Source: Octopus vulgaris (lineage: Eukaryota). From it: 64,000 nt of DNA. Made by a program: the position numbers and the translations under genes. Within the stretch, counting starts at the first letter, position 1. Every line of letters begins with the position of its first letter. This document shows positions 1,839-63,170 of this stretch, one piece after another. The notes under the pieces were generated by a model, which was not told the DNA's origin, searched no databases, and saw only the letters and a program-made list of their open reading frames with translations. The stretch is taken from NCBI GenBank assembly GCA_951406725.2, contig OX597814.1:143778001-143842000 (forward strand), given 5' to 3'.

Positions 1839-2168
1839 GTTGGAGTTGTTGTTGTTGTTATTGTTTTTGTTATTGTTATTATTTACTTTGAATTTGCATG
1901 CTTGTTGCAATTACTTGCCGAGACTCACCCAGTGTCCTAGGGCGTGTGGAGGATAAGAGATGTTACAGTATGATTGAATGTTTGGGTAAAGGGAAGTCGC
2001 AGGGCAGTAGTGAAATAGCTTCATGTTATACATTATTATTAATATTATTGTTGCTGTTGTTGTTGTTGTAAAAAGAAGAAGAAGAAGAAGAAGAAGAAGA
2101 AGAAGAAGAAGAAGAAGAAGAAGAAGAAGAAGAAGAAGAAGAAGAAGAAGAAGGTAACAAGCTTGTAC

Positions 2169-2252
2169 CTGAATCTCTGCTTCTTGGTATATATTCCGTT
2201 TAGTCCCTCCCATGCGACAATGGCCATCATTAGGGATTACTGCACCTGCAAG
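2169..2252 (-). CDS. ITGB: Integrin beta exon 10 (LAGAVIPNDGHCRMGGTKRNIYQEAEIQ); gene continues beyond left edge
   Basis: ttcattcag acceptor, CAG|GTACAA; L.G.V.PNDG.C motif; next expected DYPS exon not found in 1-2168. Confidence 0.93.
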
Positions 2253-2314
2253 CTGAATGAACAGCATAAATTGTGAAATGCATTTAATTAGGCATAATAA
2301 TATTAAACATGAAA

Positions 2315-2898
2315 GGGTGGCGAGCTGGCAGAAACGTTAGCACGCCGGGCGAAATGCTACTTATGAGTTCAAATTCCGCCGAGGTAGACTTTGCCTTTCA
2401 TCCTTTCGGGGTCGATAAATTAAGTACTAGTTACGAACTGGGATCGATATAATCGACTTAATCCGTTTGTCTGTTCTTGTTCGTCCTCTCTGTGTTTAGC
2501 CCCTTGTGGGTAGTAAAGAAATAGGTATTTCGTCTGCCGCTACTTCTGAGTTCAAATTCCGCCGTGGTCGACTTTGCCTTTCGCCCTTCCGGGGTCGATT
2601 AAATAAGTACCAGTTACGCACTGGGGTTGATATAATCGACTTAATCCGTTTGTCTGTCCTTGTTTGTCCCCTCTGTGTGTAGCCCCTTGTGGACAGTAAA
2701 GAAATAAGAATCGTTAGCACGCCCGACAAAATGTTTTTAAATTCTTTAAATTCTGAGTTCAAATCCCGCCGAGGCCGACTTTGTCTTTCATCTCTCGGGA
2801 TCGATAAAATAAGGACCATTTGAGCACTGGGTTCGATGTAATCGACCTACACTTCCCCACGAAATTGCTGTTCTTGTGCCAAAATTTGAAGCCGATAT
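2315..2898 (+). mobile_element. tRNA-derived SINE (Meta-domain-like), partial tandem multimer
   Basis: GGCGAGCTGGCAGAA..GAGTTCAAATTCC box A/B-like head, GTCGACTTTGCCTTTCATCCTTTCGGGGTCGATAAA core repeated 3 times. Confidence 0.75.
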
Positions 2899-4376
2899 TA
2901 TACGGTTCATATGTATGTTATAAATCCCGTAATTAGGAAATTCTGGGACAAATCAAATGGATTTTAATCATGTAATGTTAATATTGATCGGAAATTGTCG
3001 TTTAAAAAAGCTAATTCAAAACTTATTGAACGAAATTTCTTTTTTTTTGGGGGGGGGGGGGGAGATTTTAAGTGGTAAATATATAATTTAGGTACAAGAC
3101 CAGCAATTTGAGAGGAGAAATTTAGTCAATACGATCTATTCCAGTACTTGACTAGCAATGTATTTTATCGGTTCCGGAGAGATGAAACGCAAAGCTAACC
3201 TTGGAAGGATTTAAACTCAGAAGTTAAAGAGCTGCAAGAATATATCATTACGTATTTCGTTCAAAGTTCTTAAGGAATATGCCAATCGTTCGCCGTCATT
3301 GCAGATGCATAATTAATTCAAAATGAAGGATCATTCTACGTATAAGTTGTTCAAATATCCCTTAAGAGAAGTTCTCAGTTCTACCTGCCGATGACAAAAT
3401 AAATTCTGATGATAAAATAAATTCTCATAAATTCTGCGGAAAGGATCCAACCGATTATATTTACTTCATTACTTCACACGTGTTTATTTAACAAACCAGG
3501 ACAAATTTCGATCCAGCAAGAATTAAATTTAGAACGTTAAATTGCTTAACTTTCTATCCATCACGCCTCCAGTTTAGTCAATCGACTACCCCATTTTTTC
3601 CACGAACCACTAATTCTGTCAATCCACCATTCCATTTCATTCATTATTTAAGACGATGTTGTTTAAGTACTGGTTGCGATTTACATCGCTATAATATGGA
3701 TAATAAATGAATAAATAAATAAAGCTCCTTCTCGAGGTATATTGACTCATGAGGCCCGTTTCACGGTTTCAGTGGCGTATATAGATCAAGAACTAAAGCA
3801 ATGACCACTGGTCTTTTAAGCTGAATATAGGACTATCTATGCATTTTTGCCCATCAAGAATTAACATATCCACTGTAAATTTCTACATTTATAACAGTCA
3901 CTTAAGTTATGGTGGCGATTTATATTCTGAAAATGCATTTTATATGTGAATGCTGTTATAGAAATAGAAGTTAGAGTGTAATTTGAGGAAGATGTTATTG
4001 ATAGTCCTGGCGGGTGATCGACCGGCATCATAAAGACACACTCGTTGGCCTTGAGACATTGTAGTGACAACGGAGGTTTATAAGTCGCTAAATAGCAAAA
4101 CGTTCATGGACATTTTATATAATATTTATTTTGAAGCACATTGTTATAAACGGTTCAGATTCTAAATCTCAGCAGTACACTCCTTTAACGAAGAAATATT
4201 CAATGTTCATACTAACACACACACACACACACACACACAAGGTATTCTTTGTTATAACATAACGTATCGTCAAAGAAACAGTATAGAACATTGTTACCAA
4301 TGATCTCGATGGTAAAATTAAAGATCTAACGCTTAAGGGAATTAATAAATAATTCGTTGGTGATATAAGCACATAG

Positions 4377-4436
<60 letters not shown>

Positions 4437-4437
<1 letters not shown>

Positions 4438-4866
4438 TATGTTTGACTTTTGCTTTATGTTTGTACAAGTTGGCTCCAAGTCTCACCCAGAGACCTCAAG
4501 AGACAACAGGTTGGAAGTTCACGTTGTTGTTATGCCTAGTGTGCCATATATTTGGGGTTTTTTGGGTGTTGTACTAGTGAATGTCTAATAAATAAATTTT
4601 AAAAAAAAAAAATTTTTTTAAATGTTTGTTTTAAACCTTGAGATTACATAGAGAGTATTTTGCGTAGGATATGAACAGTTCCCATGAGCACTATCTTTTG
4701 AATTTCTGCCATTTTGGGGTTTCCTGGTATCTGAGTTAGGTAGCAATCATCCCCTTTCGCTATCATTCCCAGGGTACCTATGACAACAGGTATTGTTTTA
4801 GTCTTCAGGTTCCACATTTTGCTGATTTCTATTTCAAGATCTTTATATTTGCTCAGTTTTTGGTAG

Positions 4867-4868
<2 letters not shown>
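4437..4868 (-). mobile_element. 3' end of R4/Dong-type RLE non-LTR retrotransposon inserted in (TAA)n
   Basis: Minus strand reads KYKDLEIEISKMWNLKTKTIPVVIGTLGMI...QKIVLMGTVHILRKILSM*; (AAT)n on both sides. Confidence 0.8.
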
Positions 4869-4922
<54 letters not shown>

Positions 4923-4977
4923 TGTACATTGGATATTCTAAAAATACATATACGATGTTCATAAATGATCTACTCAC

Positions 4978-5061
4978 CAGTCCATCTCCTGCATAATGGA
5001 ATGGAGCATCAGAACAATAGATAATAATCTTTCGCGATTCGTTCCGCCATCCCACATTTTC
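4978..5061 (-). CDS. ITGB: Integrin beta exon 9 (ENVGWRNESRKIIIYCSDAPFHYAGDGL)
   Basis: ttaaag acceptor, CTG|GTGAGT; GWR...R.....(S/T)DA.FH.AGDG motif. Confidence 0.95.
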
Positions 5062-5711: not shown

Positions 5712-5800
5712 GGTTAACCCCTAAGGGTGGATGCTACTGTAGTTTGTAGCCCCAGGAGGACACCTCCTCCAGCTGGCTATAGACACACTTTCTGTGCCCT
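5712..5800 (-). mobile_element. 89-bp fragment of the 8.2-kb retrozyme-like element
   Basis: Near-identical reverse complement of 8600-8688. Confidence 0.85.
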
Positions 5801-7311
5801 GTGTGTGAAATTAGATCAAAATATATATTTGCTATGTTTGATATATATAAGCAGAACAAGAGGAGACACGTAGGATAGAGAATCAGTAATGAGGTCACAT
5901 AATCTGTGACGAAAGACCTTAGACAAGGAAACTAGACTAAAATAATGCTAATAAAGTTGAGGTAAAGATCAAATATATAGCGCATGTATAGCAATATCTA
6001 ATATCACAGTTTCACATCAAGAATCTTACAAAATTAATATTATCATACTATTCCTTATCAAAACAGATTAAAGTTTTTCGTGTAGTAACAGTTGACAATT
6101 CTGTTCAAAGATATCCCAGCCGTGACCTTACCCTTTATTAAGGTACTGGCTTAAAAGCCCGCACTCTGTGCGGACTTTTACACTGGCTCATGCAGAGGGC
6201 TTTTTGGGCCTGCCGCCCAAAACTCAAGAGAGCTGAATAGCATAACTATAATACGTCTATAATGACTATATTATCCGGTGGTGCTTGATCAGAGGTTAAG
6301 GATGGATGAGAATTAATCCTGTAATGCAATCATTTTATCGTTTCAATCCCAAGTTGAATTCCAACTGTTGGCTAATGTGTCCCAAAGTTCTTATTTCGAT
6401 GTAAAATCAACGAAGCAAATGTCATTTGTCTCCCCTTTGATCCTTGACGTCACCTGACAAACACCAACCAAAATGCCATGAATCAGCCAAGCTTTACCTG
6501 CTAGAAATAGCAACCCAAATGCTTTTAAATCAGATCCCAATGCTCGATGTTCAAGAACTAAATGAAGGGCAGAATTTCAATCCCGGGATCATCCTAATTC
6601 CCAAAAGGTATAATATGTCTATGTAGAGCCAGTGTAGACTGAGATACAGAGGTCCTAGACGAACAGACAGACTTTCGTTTTTCTTATTGTAGATAGCTTT
6701 TGTCGAACTACATTATTCAATGTGTCCAGTTTTTATTGAGTGATGTACGAGAGATTTTGTTTCTATTTCTAGCAAGTCTAGCGTTAGGCTTATATGCAAT
6801 ACATGTTGTACAGTTTCCAGTTGCCCTTTCATCCATTTTGTTTGATATTTAGTATAAATGTTTGATAGATTGTATAATCTAACAAGCTAATAAGGGTGGA
6901 TCCGCAATAAATAACAATCCCATATCCGGCAAATCATACACTACTGTATTAAATCATTTGGGATGTCTTAGGTTGTGATTTCTCTATTCGAACAGACAAG
7001 GGGTTAAACAACAATAGTCCATGAATAAAAAACAAAAGGACAATTTTCTATAACGACATGGTCTGTATTTAAGCTCGAAACGTAAAGACCCCGAACAAAT
7101 AAAACAATGTATTTTAACCAATACCCCTAATGATTCTACGGATTCATTACCTTCCTTTGGGATACAATGTAACAATATATGTCATTGTATATCTAACGCA
7201 TTTAGTATGTGTGAATGATTTTGATTTTTGTTGTTTAGTTCCACGTCGTCTCTGATTACAGCCATGCTTTAATTTCTTATGATCATAATGAGTGATTAAA
7301 AGAAGATTTAT

Positions 7312-8072: not shown

Positions 8073-8113
<41 letters not shown>

Positions 8114-8116
8114 AGT

Positions 8117-8710
8117 AGTTATAAACAGTAGCTGCAACACATCGTGACGTATATTTGCCATTTAAATATGGTTAACCCCTAAGGGTGGATGCTACTGTAG
8201 TTTGTAGCCCCAGGAGGACACCTCCCATAGCTGGCTATAGACACACAGGGCACAGAAAGTGTTTCTAAAGCCAGCTGGAGGAGGTGTCCTCCTAGGGCTA
8301 CAAACTACAGTAGCATCCACCCTTAGGGGTTAGCCATATTTAAATGGCAAATATACGTCACGATGTGTTGCAGCAACTGTTTATAACTCGCTCTAAGATT
8401 TACTATTGCTTGTTTACACTTTTTCGATATCAGTGTCTTTACGATACTGGAAAAAGTATATGTATTTGTGAAGGGAACCTACTTTTCATCGACAACTGTG
8501 ATCGTCACACGCCGATGACTGGTCAATATCCAGAAACTCGAGTCCGTGTGTATCGTAAGTTGGAGACGGGAAGGATGGCTTCCCTTTTCAAATACTGATA
8601 GGGCACAGAAAGTGTGTCTATAGCCAGCTGGAGGAGGTGTCCTCCTGGGGCTACAAACTACAGTAGCATCCACCCTTAGGGGTTAGCCATATTTAAATAA
8701 CAAATATACG

Positions 8711-8714
<4 letters not shown>
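8117..8714 (+). mobile_element. Retrozyme-like element: 353-bp unit + 115-bp direct repeat, preceded by inverted copy
   Basis: AGGGCACAGAAAG starts at 8247 and 8600; 8117-8245 is reverse complement of ~8259-8388; flanked by (TA)n; contains hammerhead. Confidence 0.75.
8506..8550 (+). ncRNA. Type I hammerhead ribozyme (minimal stem III)
   Basis: CACACG-CCGATGA-C-TGG[TCAATAT]CCA-GAAA-C[TCGA]G-TC/CGTGTG: 6-bp stem I, GUC site, U4C core variant. Confidence 0.72.
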
Positions 8715-11273: not shown

Positions 11274-11482
<209 letters not shown>

Positions 11483-12498: not shown

Positions 12499-13045
12499 AG
12501 GCGGCAGGCTGGCAGAAACGTTAGCACGCCGGGCGTACTGGGGTCGATCTAATCGACTGCCCGCCACCACTCCCCCAAAACATCGGGCCTTGTGCCTAGA
12601 GTAGAAAATAATATTTTTTAAAGGGGCGGCGAGCTGGCAGAATCGTTAGAACGCCGGGCAAAATGCTAAGAGGTATTTCGTATGCCGCCTACGTTCTGAG
12701 TTCAAATTCCGCTGAGGTCGACTTTGCCTTTCATCCTTTCGAGGTCGTTAAATAAGTACCAGTTACGCACTGGGGTCGATATAATCGGCTTAATCCATTT
12801 GTCTCTCCTTGTTTGTCCCCTCTGTGTTTAGTCCCTCGTGGGTAGTAAAGAAATAGGTATTTTGTCTGCCGTTACGTTCTGAGTTCAAATTCCGCTGAGG
12901 TCGACTTTGCTTTTCATCCTTTCGGGGTCGATTAATTATGTACCAGTTACACACTGGGGTCGAGGTAATTGACTTAAATCCCTTTGTCTGTCCTAGTTTA
13001 TCCCCTATATGTTTAGCCTGTGGGCCTGCGGGCAATAAAGAAATA
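12499..13045 (+). mobile_element. Meta-domain-like SINE cluster/dimer
   Basis: Same head and core as 2315-2898. Confidence 0.75.
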
Positions 13046-19039: not shown

Positions 19040-19739
19040 TTAAGATGCTGGTTAATGTTTACAATATTACCGGGAACCGAAATCAAAACCAAAAGAAATA
19101 GTGCAACGGATGTAAAAGTGTAGGAAACAAATATGGAAACAAAAATGCGCGCAAAGCAACGGGGGTAGGGTGGAGAGAGGACTTTGGAAAATTCATGAGA
19201 TCCGAGGTTTTCCCTCATAACTTTTAGGAAAATGGTTTTTTTTAAATGAAATTTTAAATAAATACCTTTCAAACGGCATATATTGCGATTATAAAGAAAT
19301 TTGTGGATAAATCTTTTCTAAGGGGGTGGGGAGAGGACACTTCAGGAAATTCCCAAGATCTGATATTTTTCCCTCATAACTGTTAGGGAGATGGATTTAT
19401 TGGAAAATGTTGTTTTCGTTTATTCGATGAATGAATTACGGTAACCTAATATGCCACAATCAGCAGTTTGGGATGAATATATCGAGTGATTTCAAGAGGT
19501 ATACTTTTTTACTCTTTTACTTGTTTCAGTCATTTGACTGTGGCCATGCGGGAGCACTGCCTTTTAGTCGAACAAATCGACCGCAGGACTTATTCTTTGT
19601 AAGCCTAGTACTTAATCAATCGGTTCTTTTGCCGAACTGCTTCGTTACGGGGACGTAAACACACCAGCATCGGTTGTCAAGTGATGTTGGGGGGTACAAA
19701 CACAGACACACAAACATAATATACACACACACACATACA

Positions 19740-19797
<58 letters not shown>

Positions 19798-20790
19798 TAC
19801 GACGGGTTTCTTTCAGTTTCCGTCTACCAAATACATTCACAAGGCTTTGGTCGGCCCGAGGCTATAGTAGAAGACACTTGCCCGAAGTGCCACGCAGTGG
19901 GACTGAACCCGGAACCATGTAGTTCGTAAGCAAGCTACTTACTACACAGCCACTCAGATATTTTGTTTTAATATTATACTTTTACTTGTTTCGCACACAC
20001 ACACAAACACTAACGTGGTTTCTATAAGGATTTTGTATCATTCTTTCTCTCTCCTGTCCGGACCTCGATACCACTAATTTTTATAACATCAGCATTTTCA
20101 CTTATTATTCTTTTCAAACTCGTCAGAATTTTCAATCTAATGTAATCCACTCTCTAGTAAACGTATTTCTGCAAAATATTCGGATTCTTAGTTATGGTAA
20201 AGGTGCACTTGTAAAAATTTAATGAAATTTTAAAGAAAGAAACAGCCCACGTTTTCCAAACAAAAAAAGTGTTGTGTGGCATATTAGGTCATCGTAATCC
20301 ATTCATCGAAAAAATCAAAAACATTTTCCAATAATTCCGGTTCCCCGCCCCTTTTTTTCCGAAGAAAAATAAGAAATTTGCGGCACATTAGGCATCCGTA
20401 ATGCATGCCATTTGAAAGGTATTTATATACAATTTCATTAAGAGATATAAATTTTCCTCAAAGTTACGAGGGAAAAAATCGGGTCTTGTGAATTTTCCCA
20501 AAGTCCTCTTCCCATCCCCTCAGAAAAGATTTTCCACACACATTTCTTTATAACCGTAATGTATGCCCTTTGAAAGGTATTTATATGAAATTTCATTAAA
20601 AAACCCCATTTTCTTAAAAGTTATGAGGGAAAAACTCGGATCTTATGAATTTTCCGAACTCTTCTCCACCACCCGTTGCTTTACGCGCATTTTTGTTTTC
20701 ATATTCGTTTCCTACCCTTTTTACACCCGTTGCACTATTTGTTTTGTTACATTTCCGGGTAATATTGTAAATATTAACCAAGATGTTTAA
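19040..20790. mobile_element. Old foldback-like element with ~350-bp diverged inverted arms; SINE nested at 19509-19955
   Basis: 19040-19390 is reverse-complement homolog of ~20450-20790; ORF track shows near-identical peptides on opposite strands. Confidence 0.65.
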
Positions 20791-21644: not shown

Positions 21645-22115
21645 GGGCGGCGAACTGTCAGAAACTTTAGCACGCCGGGCGAAATGCGTAGCCGTATTTC
21701 GTCTGGCATTACGTTCTGAGTTCAAATTCCGCCTAGGTCGACATTGCCTTTCATCGTTTTGGGGTCGATAAATGAAATATCAGTTACGCACTGGGGTCGA
21801 TGTAATCGACTTAATCCCTTTGTCTGTCCTTGTTTGTCCCCTTTGTGTTTAGCCCCTTGTGGGTAGTAAAGCAATAGGTATTTTGTCTGCCGCTACGTTC
21901 TGAGTTCAAATTCCGCCGAGGCCGACTTTGCCTTTCATCCTTTCGGGGTCGATTAATTAAGTACCAGTTACGCACTGGGGTCGGTATAGTCGACTTAATC
22001 TGTTTGTCTGTCCTTGTTTGTCCTCTCTGTGTTTAGCCTCCTTGTGGGCAATAAAGAAATATAATCTAATTTTGGACTTCTGTCTGTCTATCTGTCCGTC
22101 TGTCTCTGTCTCTGC

Positions 22116-22148
<33 letters not shown>

Positions 22149-22650
22149 CATCTATCTATCTATCTATCTTTCTTGCACTCTCTCTCCCACTCACTCTCCA
22201 TTCTCCGTTTTCCCATTTATGTATTTATCTATTTATTTATTTATTTATTTATTCATTTATTTATTTTGCTTACTGTAGCACTCAGATTTTCAGGTTGAAC
22301 AAAGTCTTATCACTCTGGAAAGGTATGCAACGGTCATGATCCACTCCGTCTTACAAATATATACAAAATATACATTGACATCTACTAACGTACATTAATA
22401 TACACTTACTTCTTTTGAAGGCGGCGAGCTGGCAGAAACGTTAGCACGCCGGGCGAAATGCGTAGCCGTATTTCGTCTGCCGTTACGTTCTGAGTTCAAA
22501 TTCCGCCGAGGTCGACTTTGCCTTTCCTCCTTTCGGGGTCGATAAATAAAGTACCAGTTTCGCACTGGGGTTGATGTAATCGACTTAATCCGTTTGTCTA
22601 TCCTTGTTTGTCCTCTCTGTGTTTAGCCCCTTGTGAGTAGTAAAGAAATA
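21645..22650 (+). mobile_element. Two Meta-domain-like SINE insertions (21645-22062 dimer; 22419-22650, ending 11 bp from exon 2 donor)
   Basis: Near-identical to the other family copies in the window. Confidence 0.8.
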
Positions 22651-22661
22651 TGTACACTTAC

Positions 22662-23226: not shown

Positions 23227-23260
<34 letters not shown>

Positions 23261-23264
<4 letters not shown>

Positions 23265-23496
23265 CATAAGGGACTAAAGCCATCTGAATATGGCTAGGGA
23301 CAGGGCAGGGTGGTGGGGGTGTTACTGTTGCATTTAGCCCCAGGCGAACATCGACGTCACCAGAAAGGCTAGACACCGACGGTGTCTAGCCTTTCTGGTG
23401 ACGTCGATGTTCGCCTGAGCTAAATGCAACAGTAACACCCCCACCACCCTGCCCTGTCCCTAGCCATATTCAGATGGCTTTAGTCCCTTATGTTAT
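23261..23496. repeat. ~236-bp near-perfect palindrome, diverged relative of the 8.2-kb element
   Basis: Centre A23379 (GACACCG-A-CGGTGTC); shares GTGTCTA..GCC, CCTGGGGCTA, ACAGTA.CA.CC, TAGCCATATT.A.ATGGC blocks. Confidence 0.9.
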
Positions 23497-23538
23497 CGAG
23501 CAGTTACTGTCTATATCTCTTTTAGAGAATTATTATTG

Positions 23539-23573
<35 letters not shown>

Positions 23574-23945
23574 TATATATATATCTGTGTATAGATATAG
23601 ATATATGCATATTTTAAAGGTAAAGATGGTATCTACAAAGGTTCTCACTGATGCACAAGTCTGTTTATGAAATACCAGCAGTTGTTCATGCATACCATCT
23701 CTCCCCTCTTTACGCAACTGATGTTATCCAAGAGAAAGCAAGGGACCGCTACAGCTTGGTACCAGTGGTAACGCAAATCATTTCTACACCTGGCTGAACT
23801 GGAGCAACATGAAATAAGGTGTTTTGCTCAAGAACACAACACATAGCCCTGTCCAGGAATCGAACTCACTACTTCATGACTATAAGCTCGACGCTATAAC
23901 CATGGAGCCATGCTCCTTCACACACACATACACACACGCGCACTC

Positions 23946-37230: not shown

Positions 37231-37233
<3 letters not shown>

Positions 37234-37868
37234 TTCAGTAAAATTTCGATTCAGATGAATATAGTACTTAAGTTAAAGGCACCAGAATTTAGTATGGTAT
37301 TATCCATATAATTCAAAATGGGGTGATTATAATCAAAATAAGCAACAAGGATATCCAGATGTAATGCAGTACGATCGTTTCATGCGACTCCATTAAATTG
37401 AACAATGCAAACATTTCATCAATTTAAAATGTAGAGCAATTTTCAGCTGCATAAAAATATAGAATTTAGTTAAAAAAGGACTCATTTGTATAATTTTCTT
37501 TTTATCCAAAATCCCCAAGAGGATAAGGAGATAGACAAAGAGCTTACTTTATGTACGACACCACAGTTGTAACAGATTTTTTCAAAAAAAGTCACTGCTT
37601 TTCACTGATTATTTCTGCTATTTAGAATCTAAATAACAGAAATAATCAGTGATAAGCAGTGTCTTTATTGAAAAAATCTCAGTTTCAACTGTGATGCCGT
37701 TGATAAAACATGTTCTTTGTCTATCTACTAATCCTCTTGGTGATTTTGGATAAAAAGAAAATTATACAAATGAAAATTATACAAATTATATAGGATTAAG
37801 TAAATTCTATATTTTTATGCAGCTGAAGATTGCTCTATATTTTAAATTGATGTAATGTTTGCATTGTT
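37231..37868 (-). mobile_element. Penelope-type terminal segment folded into ~470-bp imperfect palindrome, with hammerhead motif (37364-37452)
   Basis: Shares TGGGGTGATTATAA, AAGCAACAAG, GTAC.ATCGTTTCAT with 45415-45585; arms 37401-37626 / 37628-37868. Confidence 0.7.
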
Positions 37869-37906
37869 GAGTCAAATGCTTATTTTAATATATATATATA
37901 TATATA

Positions 37907-54050: not shown

Positions 54051-55431
54051 ATTCCCCGTGTAACTCAAACAGTAAATTCTTAATACTAGAAGCTAAAACT
54101 GAAACTTAAACCCTAAGACAATACCCTTAAACTATCCCTAAATTATTAACTATAACAATAAAGCAGAATAAGTCCGTACAGGGAATAAAATTTCAAAACA
54201 GGAGAAGTTTCTAATACCTGTGTACTAAGGAAAGGAGAGGGCGAGAACTTCCCCAAATTATATCTTTGTAGCCTTATAGGGAAAATAGAAAAAAATTACA
54301 GTTTAGAAGTTGAAAACAAAGGTACGGTTGGTAAAAGTCACATTGCACAAAGCCATAGAAATATATGTTGTTGAATGTACGTATAATTTTATGTTTGTTG
54401 TTTCATATGGTTGTAGATGTGATTCTGTTGTTACGAACATCACTTCGTAACCAAGTGGGTTCTCAACACCATCAGCACAAAACATTCGTTAACATAAGTT
54501 AGCATTGTTGAAAATATAACATTTAGGCATATACAAATGTTCATAAAAATATGTGTGTGTGAATGTCTATGTATGTGTATATATACATATGCTTCTCCGA
54601 GATTAGTAAATCTAGCGGATCTCTAATTTTTATCCATCGATGCCATTTATGATAATCGATATTGGTCCTTTTTGCTGGTCGATAACTTTGCCATTATTAT
54701 CTTTATTATTGTTATCAATAACAATTGTATGATTTTTCACATGTTGACCTTCAAAATCCCTCTATGCAGGAACAACCTTTTTTATCCTTCGTTCTGCTAC
54801 TGCATTTGTTCACTGCTAAAATGTATTCCACTATAATTTCGCTCTACATATTACCTACCACCGGGTCAGTCTAAAGTGTACGTACATCCAACACTAAAAG
54901 GGTTATGTGCATGTCTGAAGATACAACAGTATTATTTGGGAGCAATAAGGCAGCGAGCTGGCAGAATCGTTAGCACGCCAAACAAAATTCTTAGTAGCAT
55001 TTCGTCCGTCCCTACATTCTGGGTTCAAATTCCACTAAAGTCGTCTTTTCCTTTCATTATTTCGTGTTCGATAAAATAAGTACCAGTTGGGCACTTATAC
55101 AAAACTTATCCAAAACTGTTGGCCTTGTGCCAAAATTCGAGCCGAATATTATCTTGTAGCAATAAGGCGGTGAGCAGGCAAAATCGTTACCGCGCCCGAC
55201 AAAATGCTTAGCGGCATTTCTTTCGAATTTAAGTACAAAATTTCTACAAATACCACTGGAGTCAAAATGACATTCATCTTTTCAGAGTCGATCAAATAAG
55301 TATCAGTTGAGCACTGGGGTCGATGTAATCGACTTATTTTCTACCCACAATATTGTTGGGCATGTACCAATATTTGAAGGTATTATCTACTAGGAATATT
55401 CGACGCGGAAATGAATTTAACATTCTAACAA

Positions 55432-55919: not shown

Positions 55920-57409
55920 TGTATGTGTGTGTGTGTGTCTGAAGAGAGACAGAGAGAGGGAGAGAGAGAGGGATTCATATACAAATATATTTATTCATAT
56001 ATTTATACATTCTGCTTCCCTCTATAAAGTGTGTTCACTATAGCACCCTGTGTTTTTCTAAAACAAGAATATACATAATATTATCTTTCGGTATAAAAAT
56101 ACAAAGTGCCCAAAACCCACACTTAGCAGAGATTGAAAGAATATATAATTATTCAATAAAGATCAAAATAAATACACGTTTATGAATGATCAAATGGCTA
56201 AAACTTCAGGTACAAAGTGGTTTTGTTTAATGCAAACACACAAGTCACATTTTATCATTTTATCCTTTACTTAATTTCAGTTATTGTATTGCGGTCATGA
56301 TGAGACGAACTTCCACACGGTTTCCGATTTCCATATCCACTCACGAGTCATTAATCGGTTTGGGTCTACAGTAGGAAACACGTGCCCAACGTGCCACCTA
56401 CTGGAACTGAACCTGAAACTACATGGTGGCAAAGCGACCTTCTTCACCACACAGCAATGTTTGTGTCTAAATATTTTTGTCTAATGATTGCAAACAACAA
56501 CGATGCACAAACCATGACTGTTATACCAAGTTGAGTGCCCGATGTTTAACGTGATTAGCTATACACAGAAACACCATATATAGGGATTATGTCTTCTTTA
56601 TCTGCTGAAGATTACACGTCCAACAACCCCCTGTTGTAGGGATGGTGAAAATTGCGAAGTTTATTGAAAAAAGATCAAGGATCTACGATTTCGTATTGCT
56701 TTTTATCTAAAACCTTTCAACACCCGAATGTGTGTATTAACAGAAAACAAGACATTCCGACAAATTTTACTCATTTGAACATTTATCAAGATGTATTAAA
56801 GATCATCAGCTGGGAAAGAAATAGCTTTCCCACGTGAAAAATTAAAAATTTGAACGAATGGTTGTAGTTTGTTAAGAATAGAAGGTCGTAGCTAAGTCAG
56901 CATAATTTCTTTAATCCAGCATATTTCCTTTATGCGCTGTTCTATTCATTTATACGACAAGCATCACATGAAACCTCGAACAAAAGAAATGAAATAGCTC
57001 ACAAATCTCATAACGCACACGATAATACATTCCTCTTTTCCCCGTGTTTATTTCTTCAGATATATGTTAGGTAATGGAAATCAGTATAAATTTAAATGTA
57101 TACATGCATGCCAGAAGCGACCGTAGATGGCTGGAATCTGGCGACTGTGCTATCTCTCTACCGTACGGTTTCAGCTTTAGAGTGAGGCATCGTCAGAAGA
57201 GCCGGCGCAGTTCGCCAGTTCCCGGACAGCCTCGCTACGAGTAGAAAAATAACTTCAGGTACAATATAATCTGATGCAATCCTCTCTTAGGAAACCATGA
57301 GAAATCTAATATCTGGAAGATATTATGAGTTCAAATTCCGCCGAGGTCGACTTTGCCTTTCATCCTTTCGGGGTCAATAAATTAAGTACCAGTTGCGTAC
57401 TGGGGATAC

Positions 57410-58440
57410 GCAACTCTACAACTCTTATACCATTACAACCATACTACCATTCTATATCTTTCCCACATAATACTAAGTTGGATTATTACCCCTCAAATAA
57501 TAATCTTTTTATATATACTAAAATACACCTTCTGTATAACCAACACATCCCTATCCAAATTGTTATTTTTTACACATATCTTTCTCCGCTCATTTATCTC
57601 CACTTCATTTACTTTGGTCTATCTAACTTCATTTTTAAATTCAATTTTTCATCTTTATAAACACAGCAAGAACATACTACTTTAATTGTAATATCAATAA
57701 TTGCTTCTCTGTTTTTACTTGTTTTTTTTTTCTTTTATTATTAATACCTATATACATGTTACCTAATATGATTTTTTATGCAAATATGAGTCCTTTATAT
57801 ACATCATCCCTCTATAACTCATTCTCATTCGTCTATTTTTTGCCATTTGTTTACATTCACTATCTCGTATTAGCTCCTCATATACCGCTACCTGACGCTA
57901 AACTTCATTCTTTGGTAAAGATTTTTTTAAGCACATTATACAATGTACTGATTTCAACGGTTAGTTTTAATGTTAATTTTAATTTCAATTTGGTACTGTC
58001 TCCCCATTGGACATTTCTACTACTTACTTGCCCTACGCTACTTATAATTCTAATAGAGGGAAAGTCTCCGATACCTCTTTACTTATATCTCCAATTAACC
58101 GTTGAAGCCGATAGCTATGGCTCAATATCCGACATGATTCACCTCTTTCTCACACGGATACCACTATGACTCTCCTAGATCCAATTTTTAATGCTCTAAT
58201 CCTTTTAAGCTCCTTGCATTATGGTTTCTTTCCTTCCTGTGCTAAAGAGTACGTTGATATTTATTTAATTTAATTCAATCATAAATTTATATTGTGATAA
58301 TATTTCTGTACGAAACGATCGTCTGCAAGAATTAAACTTATAAATTTTAACAAGTTGTTTCCTCCATTTTTAACAAAATTGATGGCATTTTTGCAACTTC
58401 ATTCCATAAATTCATCATACATTATGTACAAGTACTACTT
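57410..58440. mobile_element. Degenerate retroelement remnant with mutated hammerhead (58234-58331, + strand)
   Basis: CTAAAGA-GTAC...GTAC-GAAACGATCGTC with TTCCTGTG/TGCAAGAA stem; body not assignable. Confidence 0.4.
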
Positions 58441-62299: not shown

Positions 62300-63170
62300 T
62301 TCTTCTGTGCCCCAGGTTTTGGTTGACGCTGCTTTAAATTTATTCTTCAAAGGAAAGACATCCAAATTTGTGAGTGGAAATTACAGAGGAATTAATTTTC
62401 TTGAAACAATTGGTAACTTCAGCTTAATCATAAAAGTGCCTATGCTCCTCTATTATCCCAGGAAGTTGATGTGGTTTTAGATCAGGTCGTGGTACAAATG
62501 ACATTAGTCTTATTGCTCCTCAACTCAAGAAGAAACGCACCGAACATCTCATAGCTCTTTACCAGGTCATTGTCAATTTAACAAAGGCTTTCGACACTGT
62601 TAATAGAATCAATCTTTGGACCATTCTAGGTAAATGGTTATGTCTGCCTCAGTTTGTCAGTTTTAAGCAACTCCATAGTAAGATGAAAGCCCGTTTTAAC
62701 TTCAGCATTTCCCTCTCGGGACCAATTTCCATCAGTAACAATGCCGAATAAGGTGAAATTCCTGCTCCAGCACTTTTTACCATATATTTTGCTGTGTCTG
62801 TTTCGTACGCTTTCTAGAACTGTGATATCAGCGTCTACATTCATTCAGAACCACAGTTAAGGGTTATATAATACGCTTCAACGGAAAATCGAAGACTTTA
62901 CAGGGCCTGGAAAGTCTTCGATTTTCAGTTGAACTCCTTTGTATTGACGATGTAGTTCCCGTTGATCAGACAGAAGAAAACATGAAGGTTATAATGAATC
63001 TCTTCTTAGGGCATGCACTGCTTTCGGAAATACAATCAGTCTGAAGAAGACATAAGTCATGTTTCTCAGCCTCCATGCCAGCCCTATATCGAACCTATAT
63101 ATATATATTACCAATGTCACACACTTACTGTATGGGTTTGCTTACGAGCCTACTGGTTGAGGGATAGCGT
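62300..63170 (+). mobile_element. Degenerate RTE-type LINE RT fragment
   Basis: FKGK.....GNYRGINFL, NLTKAFDTVNR..LW.IL, ELLCIDD remnants. Confidence 0.75.

Follow-up and report, generated by a model that had tools for sequence, protein, structure and literature searches.

The closest described systems are PLEs and retrozymes. According to the accessible text of PMC8557442, a typical PLE insertion prefers (TA)n and comprises an adjacent inverted, 5′-truncated copy and a tail of 30–40 bp at either end; the way in which the tandem and inverted ends form is called undefined there. Head-to-head palindromic junctions of PLEs are described in PMC3846280, in whose accessible part self-priming is proposed and terminal repeats alone are reported to have mobilised other sequence in trans. 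As to the enzyme, the accessible text of PMC11167929 states that the PLE GIY-YIG domain nicks AT-rich DNA and that reverse transcription begins within the RNA, at sites separated by the length of a tail; with the Poseidon element of Anolis in vitro, both strands were nicked and extended, and there were two internal start sites. Metazoan non-LTR retrozymes were defined in PMC7229834 (mussel units measure about 350–390 bp), and their mobilisation by PLE machinery has been proposed (bioRxiv 10.64898/2026.07.22.740005). Inverted 5′ arms are not described for retrozymes in the main text of PMC7229834 or in the accessible text of that preprint.

The window analysed here, a 64-kb stretch of Octopus vulgaris DNA, contains two related insertions, A (23261–23539) and B (at 8.2 kb), that resemble both systems. 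With EN+ PLE insertions carrying an inverted pLTR, as the accessible papers describe them, A and B have in common a head-to-head 5′-truncated copy, a palindromic junction, a tail, (TA)n and a partial tandem. Unlike EN+ PLEs, they are non-coding and have no counterpart among the coding PLEs of the window, and their tails (43 nt in A, about 27 nt in B) lie near, but outside, the published range. Poseidon is similar in its AT-rich target and in the internal start sites that explain the tail; it is, however, an autonomous element, and the accessible text of PMC11167929 leaves the origin of its 5′ inverted junction unresolved. With the metazoan non-LTR retrozymes of PMC7229834, as far as its main text goes, B shares a non-coding tandem unit of 353 nt and 42% G+C, a motif resembling a type I hammerhead and a helix III that is palindromic and weak, and this unit lies within the retrozyme range (150–450 bp, under 50% G+C, non-coding tandem). 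Unlike those retrozymes, B has 1.3 units in the window with one non-canonical motif, and A has no motif. Compared with the EN+ PLE papers, junction positions are here mapped over the 353-nt unit. A and B are members of a new octopod non-autonomous PLE/retrozyme-type family, whose integration signature is itself already known. A literature search, for which subscription papers, repeat databases and supplements were mostly beyond reach, found no paper that treats this octopod family or inverted insertions of retrozymes; family lists could already contain its repeats.

Anatomy of the insertion and of its sister repeat

The initial annotation described a 236-bp palindrome with a 1-nt centre beside (TA)n, and so it is: a left arm of 118 bp (23261–23378) and a right arm of 117 bp (23380–23496) flank the single nucleotide A23379. 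One substitution and one indel distinguish the arms, which match perfectly over the 38 bp around the centre. The block CCTGGGGCTA, which had been quoted as the reading of one arm, belongs to the left arm in its minus-strand reading, and a mutated form of it stands in the right arm. The palindrome edge at 23496 was correctly placed, but it is not the end of the element: the following 43 nt (23497–23539, plus strand), which the initial annotation had missed, are still family sequence, matching B 8367–8409, and (TA)n restarts only after 23539. A is therefore an asymmetric insertion, not a pure palindrome. It consists of an inverted 5′-truncated copy (23261–23378, minus strand), the outer end of which meets (TA)n and corresponds to B 8366, and of a forward 5′-truncated copy of 160 bp (23380–23539, plus strand), homologous to B 8259–8409, that ends in the one-sided extension, a PLE-type tail. 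The (TA)n target lies at 23228–23263 on the left and at 23540–23606 on the right, and the flanks of A have no mirror symmetry (score of 25, against 682 for self). The combination of a (TA)n target, an inverted 5′-truncated copy and a one-sided tail is the published PLE signature, and A bears it. B is built alike: its inverted copy lies head to head, its tail is one-sided and (TA)n borders it left and right. In both elements the orientation was set by the unit and motif of B.

The claim that A and B are diverged sister elements was confirmed by alignment. The two share 97 identities over 146 aligned pairs (161 columns), for a score of 85.5 that none of 2000 dinucleotide shuffles reached (mean 25.5, maximum 44), and the best non-self matches of A in the 64 kb are the copies of B. 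The A-like and B families are only about 65% alike. No second copy of A was found within the 64-kb window, no frame of at least 100 aa over A or B, and no match of a degenerate family-wide motif in viral and metagenome contigs. A hammerhead core is absent from A, a truncated copy that starts downstream of the position of the motif in B.

B begins with an inverted copy of 130 bp (8117–8246, minus strand) that starts at unit position 8612. It is followed on the plus strand by one full 353-nt unit (8247–8599), starting at unit position 8600, and by a second, partial unit of 115 nt (8600–8714) that ends in (TA)n. The two starting points, 8600 for the forward copy and 8612 for the mirror arm, leave a 12-nt spacer. 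The inverted arm overshoots the 3′ end of the forward array by about 27 nt and has a 13-bp duplication (8107–8131) at its outer end. A third, solo copy (5712–5806, minus strand) also starts at unit position 8600 and is preceded by 6 nt, ACACAC, identical at the 8.2-kb junction. The copies of B in the window differ by 1–7 per 77 nt, and the right arm of B carries T8621A, a family variant making up 14–18% of depth, which the left arm lacks. A head-to-tail joint of 8714/8711 to 8362/8363 closes the 353-nt unit in all four contig runs described below, and the unit is predicted to fold into a rod-like structure.

The motif of B (8505–8550, plus strand, core at 8512) was recognised by pattern and fold. 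It has a short, weak palindromic helix III, is predicted to lie at the tip of a long stem and would be cut after 8544. C replaces U4, and helix II lacks a basal G-C pair; among the B contigs, C accounts for most of the depth at this position, with T in 34–48 contigs per run. Rfam gave no match at the gathering score in the window and no hammerhead family for B at an E-value ≤10. For these three reasons the motif is called hammerhead-like only. In sister subfamilies of B, the base of helix II and the loop of helix III seem to differ (unit 8531–8568), and the block after 8633 seems intermediate between B and A, which suggests a continuum of subfamilies.

Other inverted elements in the window

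Comparison of the window with itself revealed three adjacent inversions beyond A and B, here called C, D and E. D (37232–37890, minus strand) is a PLE terminal-repeat fragment related to E, arranged as a head-to-head palindrome with a 1-nt centre at 37627 and with (TA)n on both sides. E (45415–49426, minus strand), also between (TA)n tracts, is a 5′-truncated coding PLE in which an 864-bp inverted arm is joined across a 2.2-kb loop. The relationship of D to the terminal repeat of E gives a score of 178, against a shuffle maximum of 115.5 (0 of 300 shuffles). Since D also has a 1-nt centre, such centres are not special to A. The centre of D maps to about 45.84 kb in E and the arm of E starts at 46393, so that the turns are about 550 nt apart and these related PLE sequences of the window have no turn in common.

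The frame of E (47147–48283, minus strand) is of GIY-YIG type. It has GIY-YIG-type neighbours and 3443 relatives at an E-value ≤0.001. The best relative is 74% identical and comes from Octopus sinensis and another is from Argonauta hians, which puts the window among octopods. Two long relatives carry, by eye, what I take to be reverse-transcriptase-like motifs upstream of the matched domain. Two word-index protein searches with the frame gave no match and Pfam no passing family; with the relatives, Pfam returned GIY-YIG only below threshold, in two of seven. P0084 had no match among solved structures. Between the linker and the GIY-YIG-type domain lies a long asparagine-rich stretch, which resembles the N-rich inserts of rotifer Penelope elements described in the accessible part of PMC3846280.

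An ORF with both reverse transcriptase and GIY-YIG, the hallmark of an autonomous PLE, is lacking in A and B and is present only in part in E. No autonomous partner of A or B was found within the window. E and D are not supported as partners, the observed scores being reached by 237, 20, 276 and 173 of 300 shuffles. The terminal repeats of E (45560–45670, minus strand) and D (37390–37450, minus strand) contain hammerhead-like motifs in which helix II is long; Rfam gave no hammerhead family at an E-value ≤10 for that of E. C (11374–11481 and onward) has perfect 47-bp arms and a 16-nt spacer, with (TA)n on the left and unique sequence on the right. It has no similarity to B or E and is possibly another PLE-type family. 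A, B, D and E are thus enclosed by (TA)n, and C adjoins it on one side.

The window holds further repeats. A 57-bp imperfect palindrome at 62877–62933 has no adjoining (TA)n. At 19049–20780, two arms of about 340 bp, 82% alike, enclose a SINE-like repeat and a TA tract; this older long inverted repeat may be what is left of a DNA transposon. Two frames at 40598–41257 (minus strand) seem to resemble a PIF1-type helicase of Helitrons. A repeat of about 184 bp is abundant in both orientations and frequently forms short tandems (2293–2886, 12625–12976, 21646–22654, 55017–55336 and 57323–57422), and a short, telomere-like tandem of CCCTAA type lies within the window at 44618–44663.

Turn points along the family B unit

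The initial annotation held that A and B both turn just 5′ of GTGTCTA, which is true of the mirror arms but not of the forward copy of B. In A, the mirror register starts at 23380, 2 nt before the anchor at 23382; the mirror arm of B likewise starts 2 nt before its anchor (8612-equivalent, anchor at 8614), and the forward copy of B starts 14 nt before it, hence the 12-nt spacer against the 1-nt centre of A. A start of the mirror arm at 8612–8613 is thus common to B, to one contig joint and, as judged by alignment, to A. Two independent ends would fall within 12 nt of each other with a frequency of 11% under a uniform null, and 25 of the 144 pairs of observed ends do so; an exact match within 2 nt has a chance of about 2% per pair, a figure obtained post hoc. 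At the other side of the element, the outer ends lie, in B coordinates, at 8366 and 8409 for A and at 8361 and about 8388 for B.

To the annotation, this coincidence meant an inversion programmed at a fixed end, to be refuted by turn points scattered among copies. Family B is present in 20 of 24 listed runs, under four organism labels; no RNA source was listed as containing it, which says nothing about its expression. Contigs of four runs, one per label, were mapped onto the single B unit 8362–8714 (4951, 5020, 3090 and 2098 contigs), and the joint data accordingly concern family B only. Among the 15 joints listed, of 17 in total, nine switch strand, at nine different pairs of unit positions: 8454/8580, 8514/8589, 8523/8561, 8564/8653, 8574/8658, 8574/8676, 8575/8674, 8576/8613 and 8584/8636. 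Four of them were seen in two runs each; run X1 had none among its listed joints. Between 0 and 4 letters fit both sides of the joints. Their ends span 8454–8584 (130 nt) and 8561–8676 (115 nt), and only one of the 18 falls within 8598–8614. The turn of the window itself, 8600/8612, is absent from the nine, and the contig mapping listed no position on the B unit where many molecules begin or end. Head-to-head orientation could be read in one joint of the nine (8576/8613, run X4). The offsets all lie between 37 and 126 nt, so that tight fold-backs such as those of the window may be lost in short-read contigs, which report the presence of joints and not their absence.

The strand-switch point therefore varies among the copies of family B. 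This scatter excludes an obligate fixed turn in family B and leaves a programmed end unsupported; how often 8600–8613 serves is not gauged by the joints. Folding back thus has at most a preferred position, not a set one.

A favoured zone likely remains. All nine joints have one end in 8561–8589, 17–45 nt past the predicted hammerhead cut. Simulated joints shared some 29-nt window, a width picked after the data were seen, in 0 of 5000 trials with a uniform null; the counts were 56 and 96 of 5000 with depth weighting and 20 of 5000 with an intermediate scheme. Since sister subfamilies diverge near 8557–8569, the apparent joint ends could be shifted. The same divergence makes the steps in summed depth (3.6–8.0-fold near 8530–8553, and a rise of 1.4–3.6-fold across 8590–8613) unusable as copy counts, because diverged subfamilies drop out there.

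Hairpins are predicted at 8568–8584 and 8601–8619 (plus strand), where the junction ends cluster. Four joint ends (8574, 8574, 8575 and 8576) are in the loop of the former, and the junction of B in the window brackets the latter, the forward copy beginning at the foot of the hairpin and the mirror arm at the border of the loop; by homology, the centre of A at 23379 may possibly correspond to that predicted loop. Simple priming at this natural hairpin of B was rejected, for it predicts a 5-nt loop and B shows a 12-nt spacer. The suggestion that the conserved blocks form a structured RNA received a hint from one conserved hairpin, 8630–8645, in which a sister subfamily has changed on both sides (GGAGA with TCTCC, 9–17 contigs in three runs) and whose homologous stretch in A is predicted to pair similarly. 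G8603A and A8697G are one-sided compatible changes. All of this amounts to hints of structure. Covariation within the window has no power to add to them: RNAalifold on the six in-window copies gave double changes in 2 of 19 pairs and a positive covariation term, with the first hairpin misregistered and two lineages represented. The comparison of A with B is uninformative on structure, since the GCCAT/ATGGC stem is identical in both.

Origin of the mirror arm

In my view, and with moderate confidence, palindrome A arose when a small non-coding repeat entered (TA)n in 5′-truncated, head-to-head form; the 353-nt tandem unit of its sister family, B, carries a hammerhead-like motif. The enzyme of a PLE, working in trans, likely carried out the insertion, and the mirror arm likely derives from a stalled nascent cDNA that switched onto itself. 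The inversion most likely arises during integration, as the annotation held; this is known PLE behaviour, for which self-priming has already been proposed in the accessible part of PMC3846280. The fixed end of the annotation is not supported. I infer the identity of the enzyme as a PLE, the cDNA stall and the self-copying. A PLE enzyme acting in trans would nick (TA)n and prime cDNA at internal RNA sites, leaving outer ends a tail-length apart. Synthesis would stop early, and the 3′ end of the cDNA would pair over 0–4 nt with its own strand and copy back. Such self-copying could give rise to centres of 1 nt (A and D), 12 nt (B), 37–126 nt (contig joints) and 2.2 kb (E). The switch point would be biased to a hairpin-rich zone about 17–70 nt 3′ of the predicted ribozyme cut, in which case the match between A and B would represent two hits in or near this zone, and not a programmed end.

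In the main rival reading, though this seems unlikely, both ends of the target would be primed. A PLE dimer would nick both strands, each end would prime its own cDNA at an internal start site, and the truncated cDNAs would join head to head, the mirror arm then coming from a second RNA. In the accessible text of PMC11167929, purified PLE protein, a predicted dimer, indeed cleaves and extends both strands. The outer ends differ by a tail on either side (right +43 in A, left about +27 in B), T8621A is present in the right arm of B only, and neither the joint offsets of 37–126 nt with a 0-letter overlap nor the 2.2-kb loop of E would need a hairpin. Wide loops without microhomology fit two-ended priming and self-copying equally well. 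The 1-nt centres of A and D, however, would require two cDNAs to stop at one base, which is unlikely if stops are scattered, and the differences between the copies of B are compatible with ordinary post-insertion decay and cannot tell the two models apart.

That the inversion is programmed at one fixed RNA end common to both subfamilies, for instance a transcription start at 8600, I consider improbable. The mirror arms of A and B share a register, the 5.7-kb copy begins at 8600 behind the identical 6 nt, one contig joint ends at 8613 in two runs, depth, which is no copy number, rises across 8590–8613, and tight fold-backs may be invisible in contigs. Against these points, the nine joints use other pairs of positions, and no site at which many contigs begin or end was listed; the spacer of B measures 12 nt, the centre of A a single nucleotide; and the B cDNA went past 8600 once without turning. 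Once the common variant T8599C is allowed for, four of the six shared nucleotides are left to be explained, and the 5.7-kb and 8.2-kb copies may share a source.

It is very improbable that A is a palindromic MITE, a TA-targeting foldback DNA transposon, that has taken up part of a B-like repeat. A is a near-perfect palindrome between TA, and palindromic MITEs of about 200 bp occur in animals (accessible text of PMC5625713); a TA target-site duplication would be indistinguishable inside (TA)n. But 43 nt of family sequence stand on one side only, in place of symmetric terminal inverted repeats, the homologue of A is a head-to-tail tandem unit and not a palindrome, A is a single copy in the window, and a like arrangement is seen in D and E, whose PLE sequence is unrelated.

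Tight palindromes form a known class of artefact, and the junction of A is read here from the assembly sequence. A fold-back generated by sequencing or assembly is nonetheless scarcely credible here, given the two differences between the arms of A, the recurrence of four opposite-strand family B joints in two different runs each, and flanks that are not mirror images, which argues against such an artefact. Formation of the mirror arm after insertion, by replication template switching beside unstable (TA)n, would account for the slippage-like 13-bp duplication at the outer end of B and for the contact of all five inverted elements with (TA)n, but it is equally far-fetched, since the mirrored part is element sequence only, never host flank, and the commoner SINE-like repeats of the window are not among the adjacent head-to-head palindromes found.

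The preferred reading, insertion by a PLE enzyme followed by self-copying, has consequences for retrozymes. The locus adds a retrozyme-type non-coding repeat bearing the PLE integration signature, and the structure of A and B supports the proposal, made in the accessible text of bioRxiv 10.64898/2026.07.22.740005, that animal retrozymes use PLE enzymes. If transcribed, palindromes such as A would be ready-made double-stranded RNA, a putative link to editing; the octopus has unusually many double-stranded RNA structures and high editing, according to the accessible text of PMC5625713. Family B is short and abundant (2098–5020 contigs per run), so its junctions could reveal how the tandem and inverted ends of PLEs form. 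A tentative and still rather doubtful extension is that octopod retrozymes are inserted by PLE enzymes and that cDNA synthesis ends and turns back where the ribozyme cut and the hairpins immediately downstream of it dictate. In this reading, the 8601–8619 hairpin is a second hot spot, retained in both families despite their divergence. If this were true, the PLE hammerhead would gain a role, and thousands of junctions on a 353-nt unit would chart in vivo the second step of PLE integration, so far unresolved.
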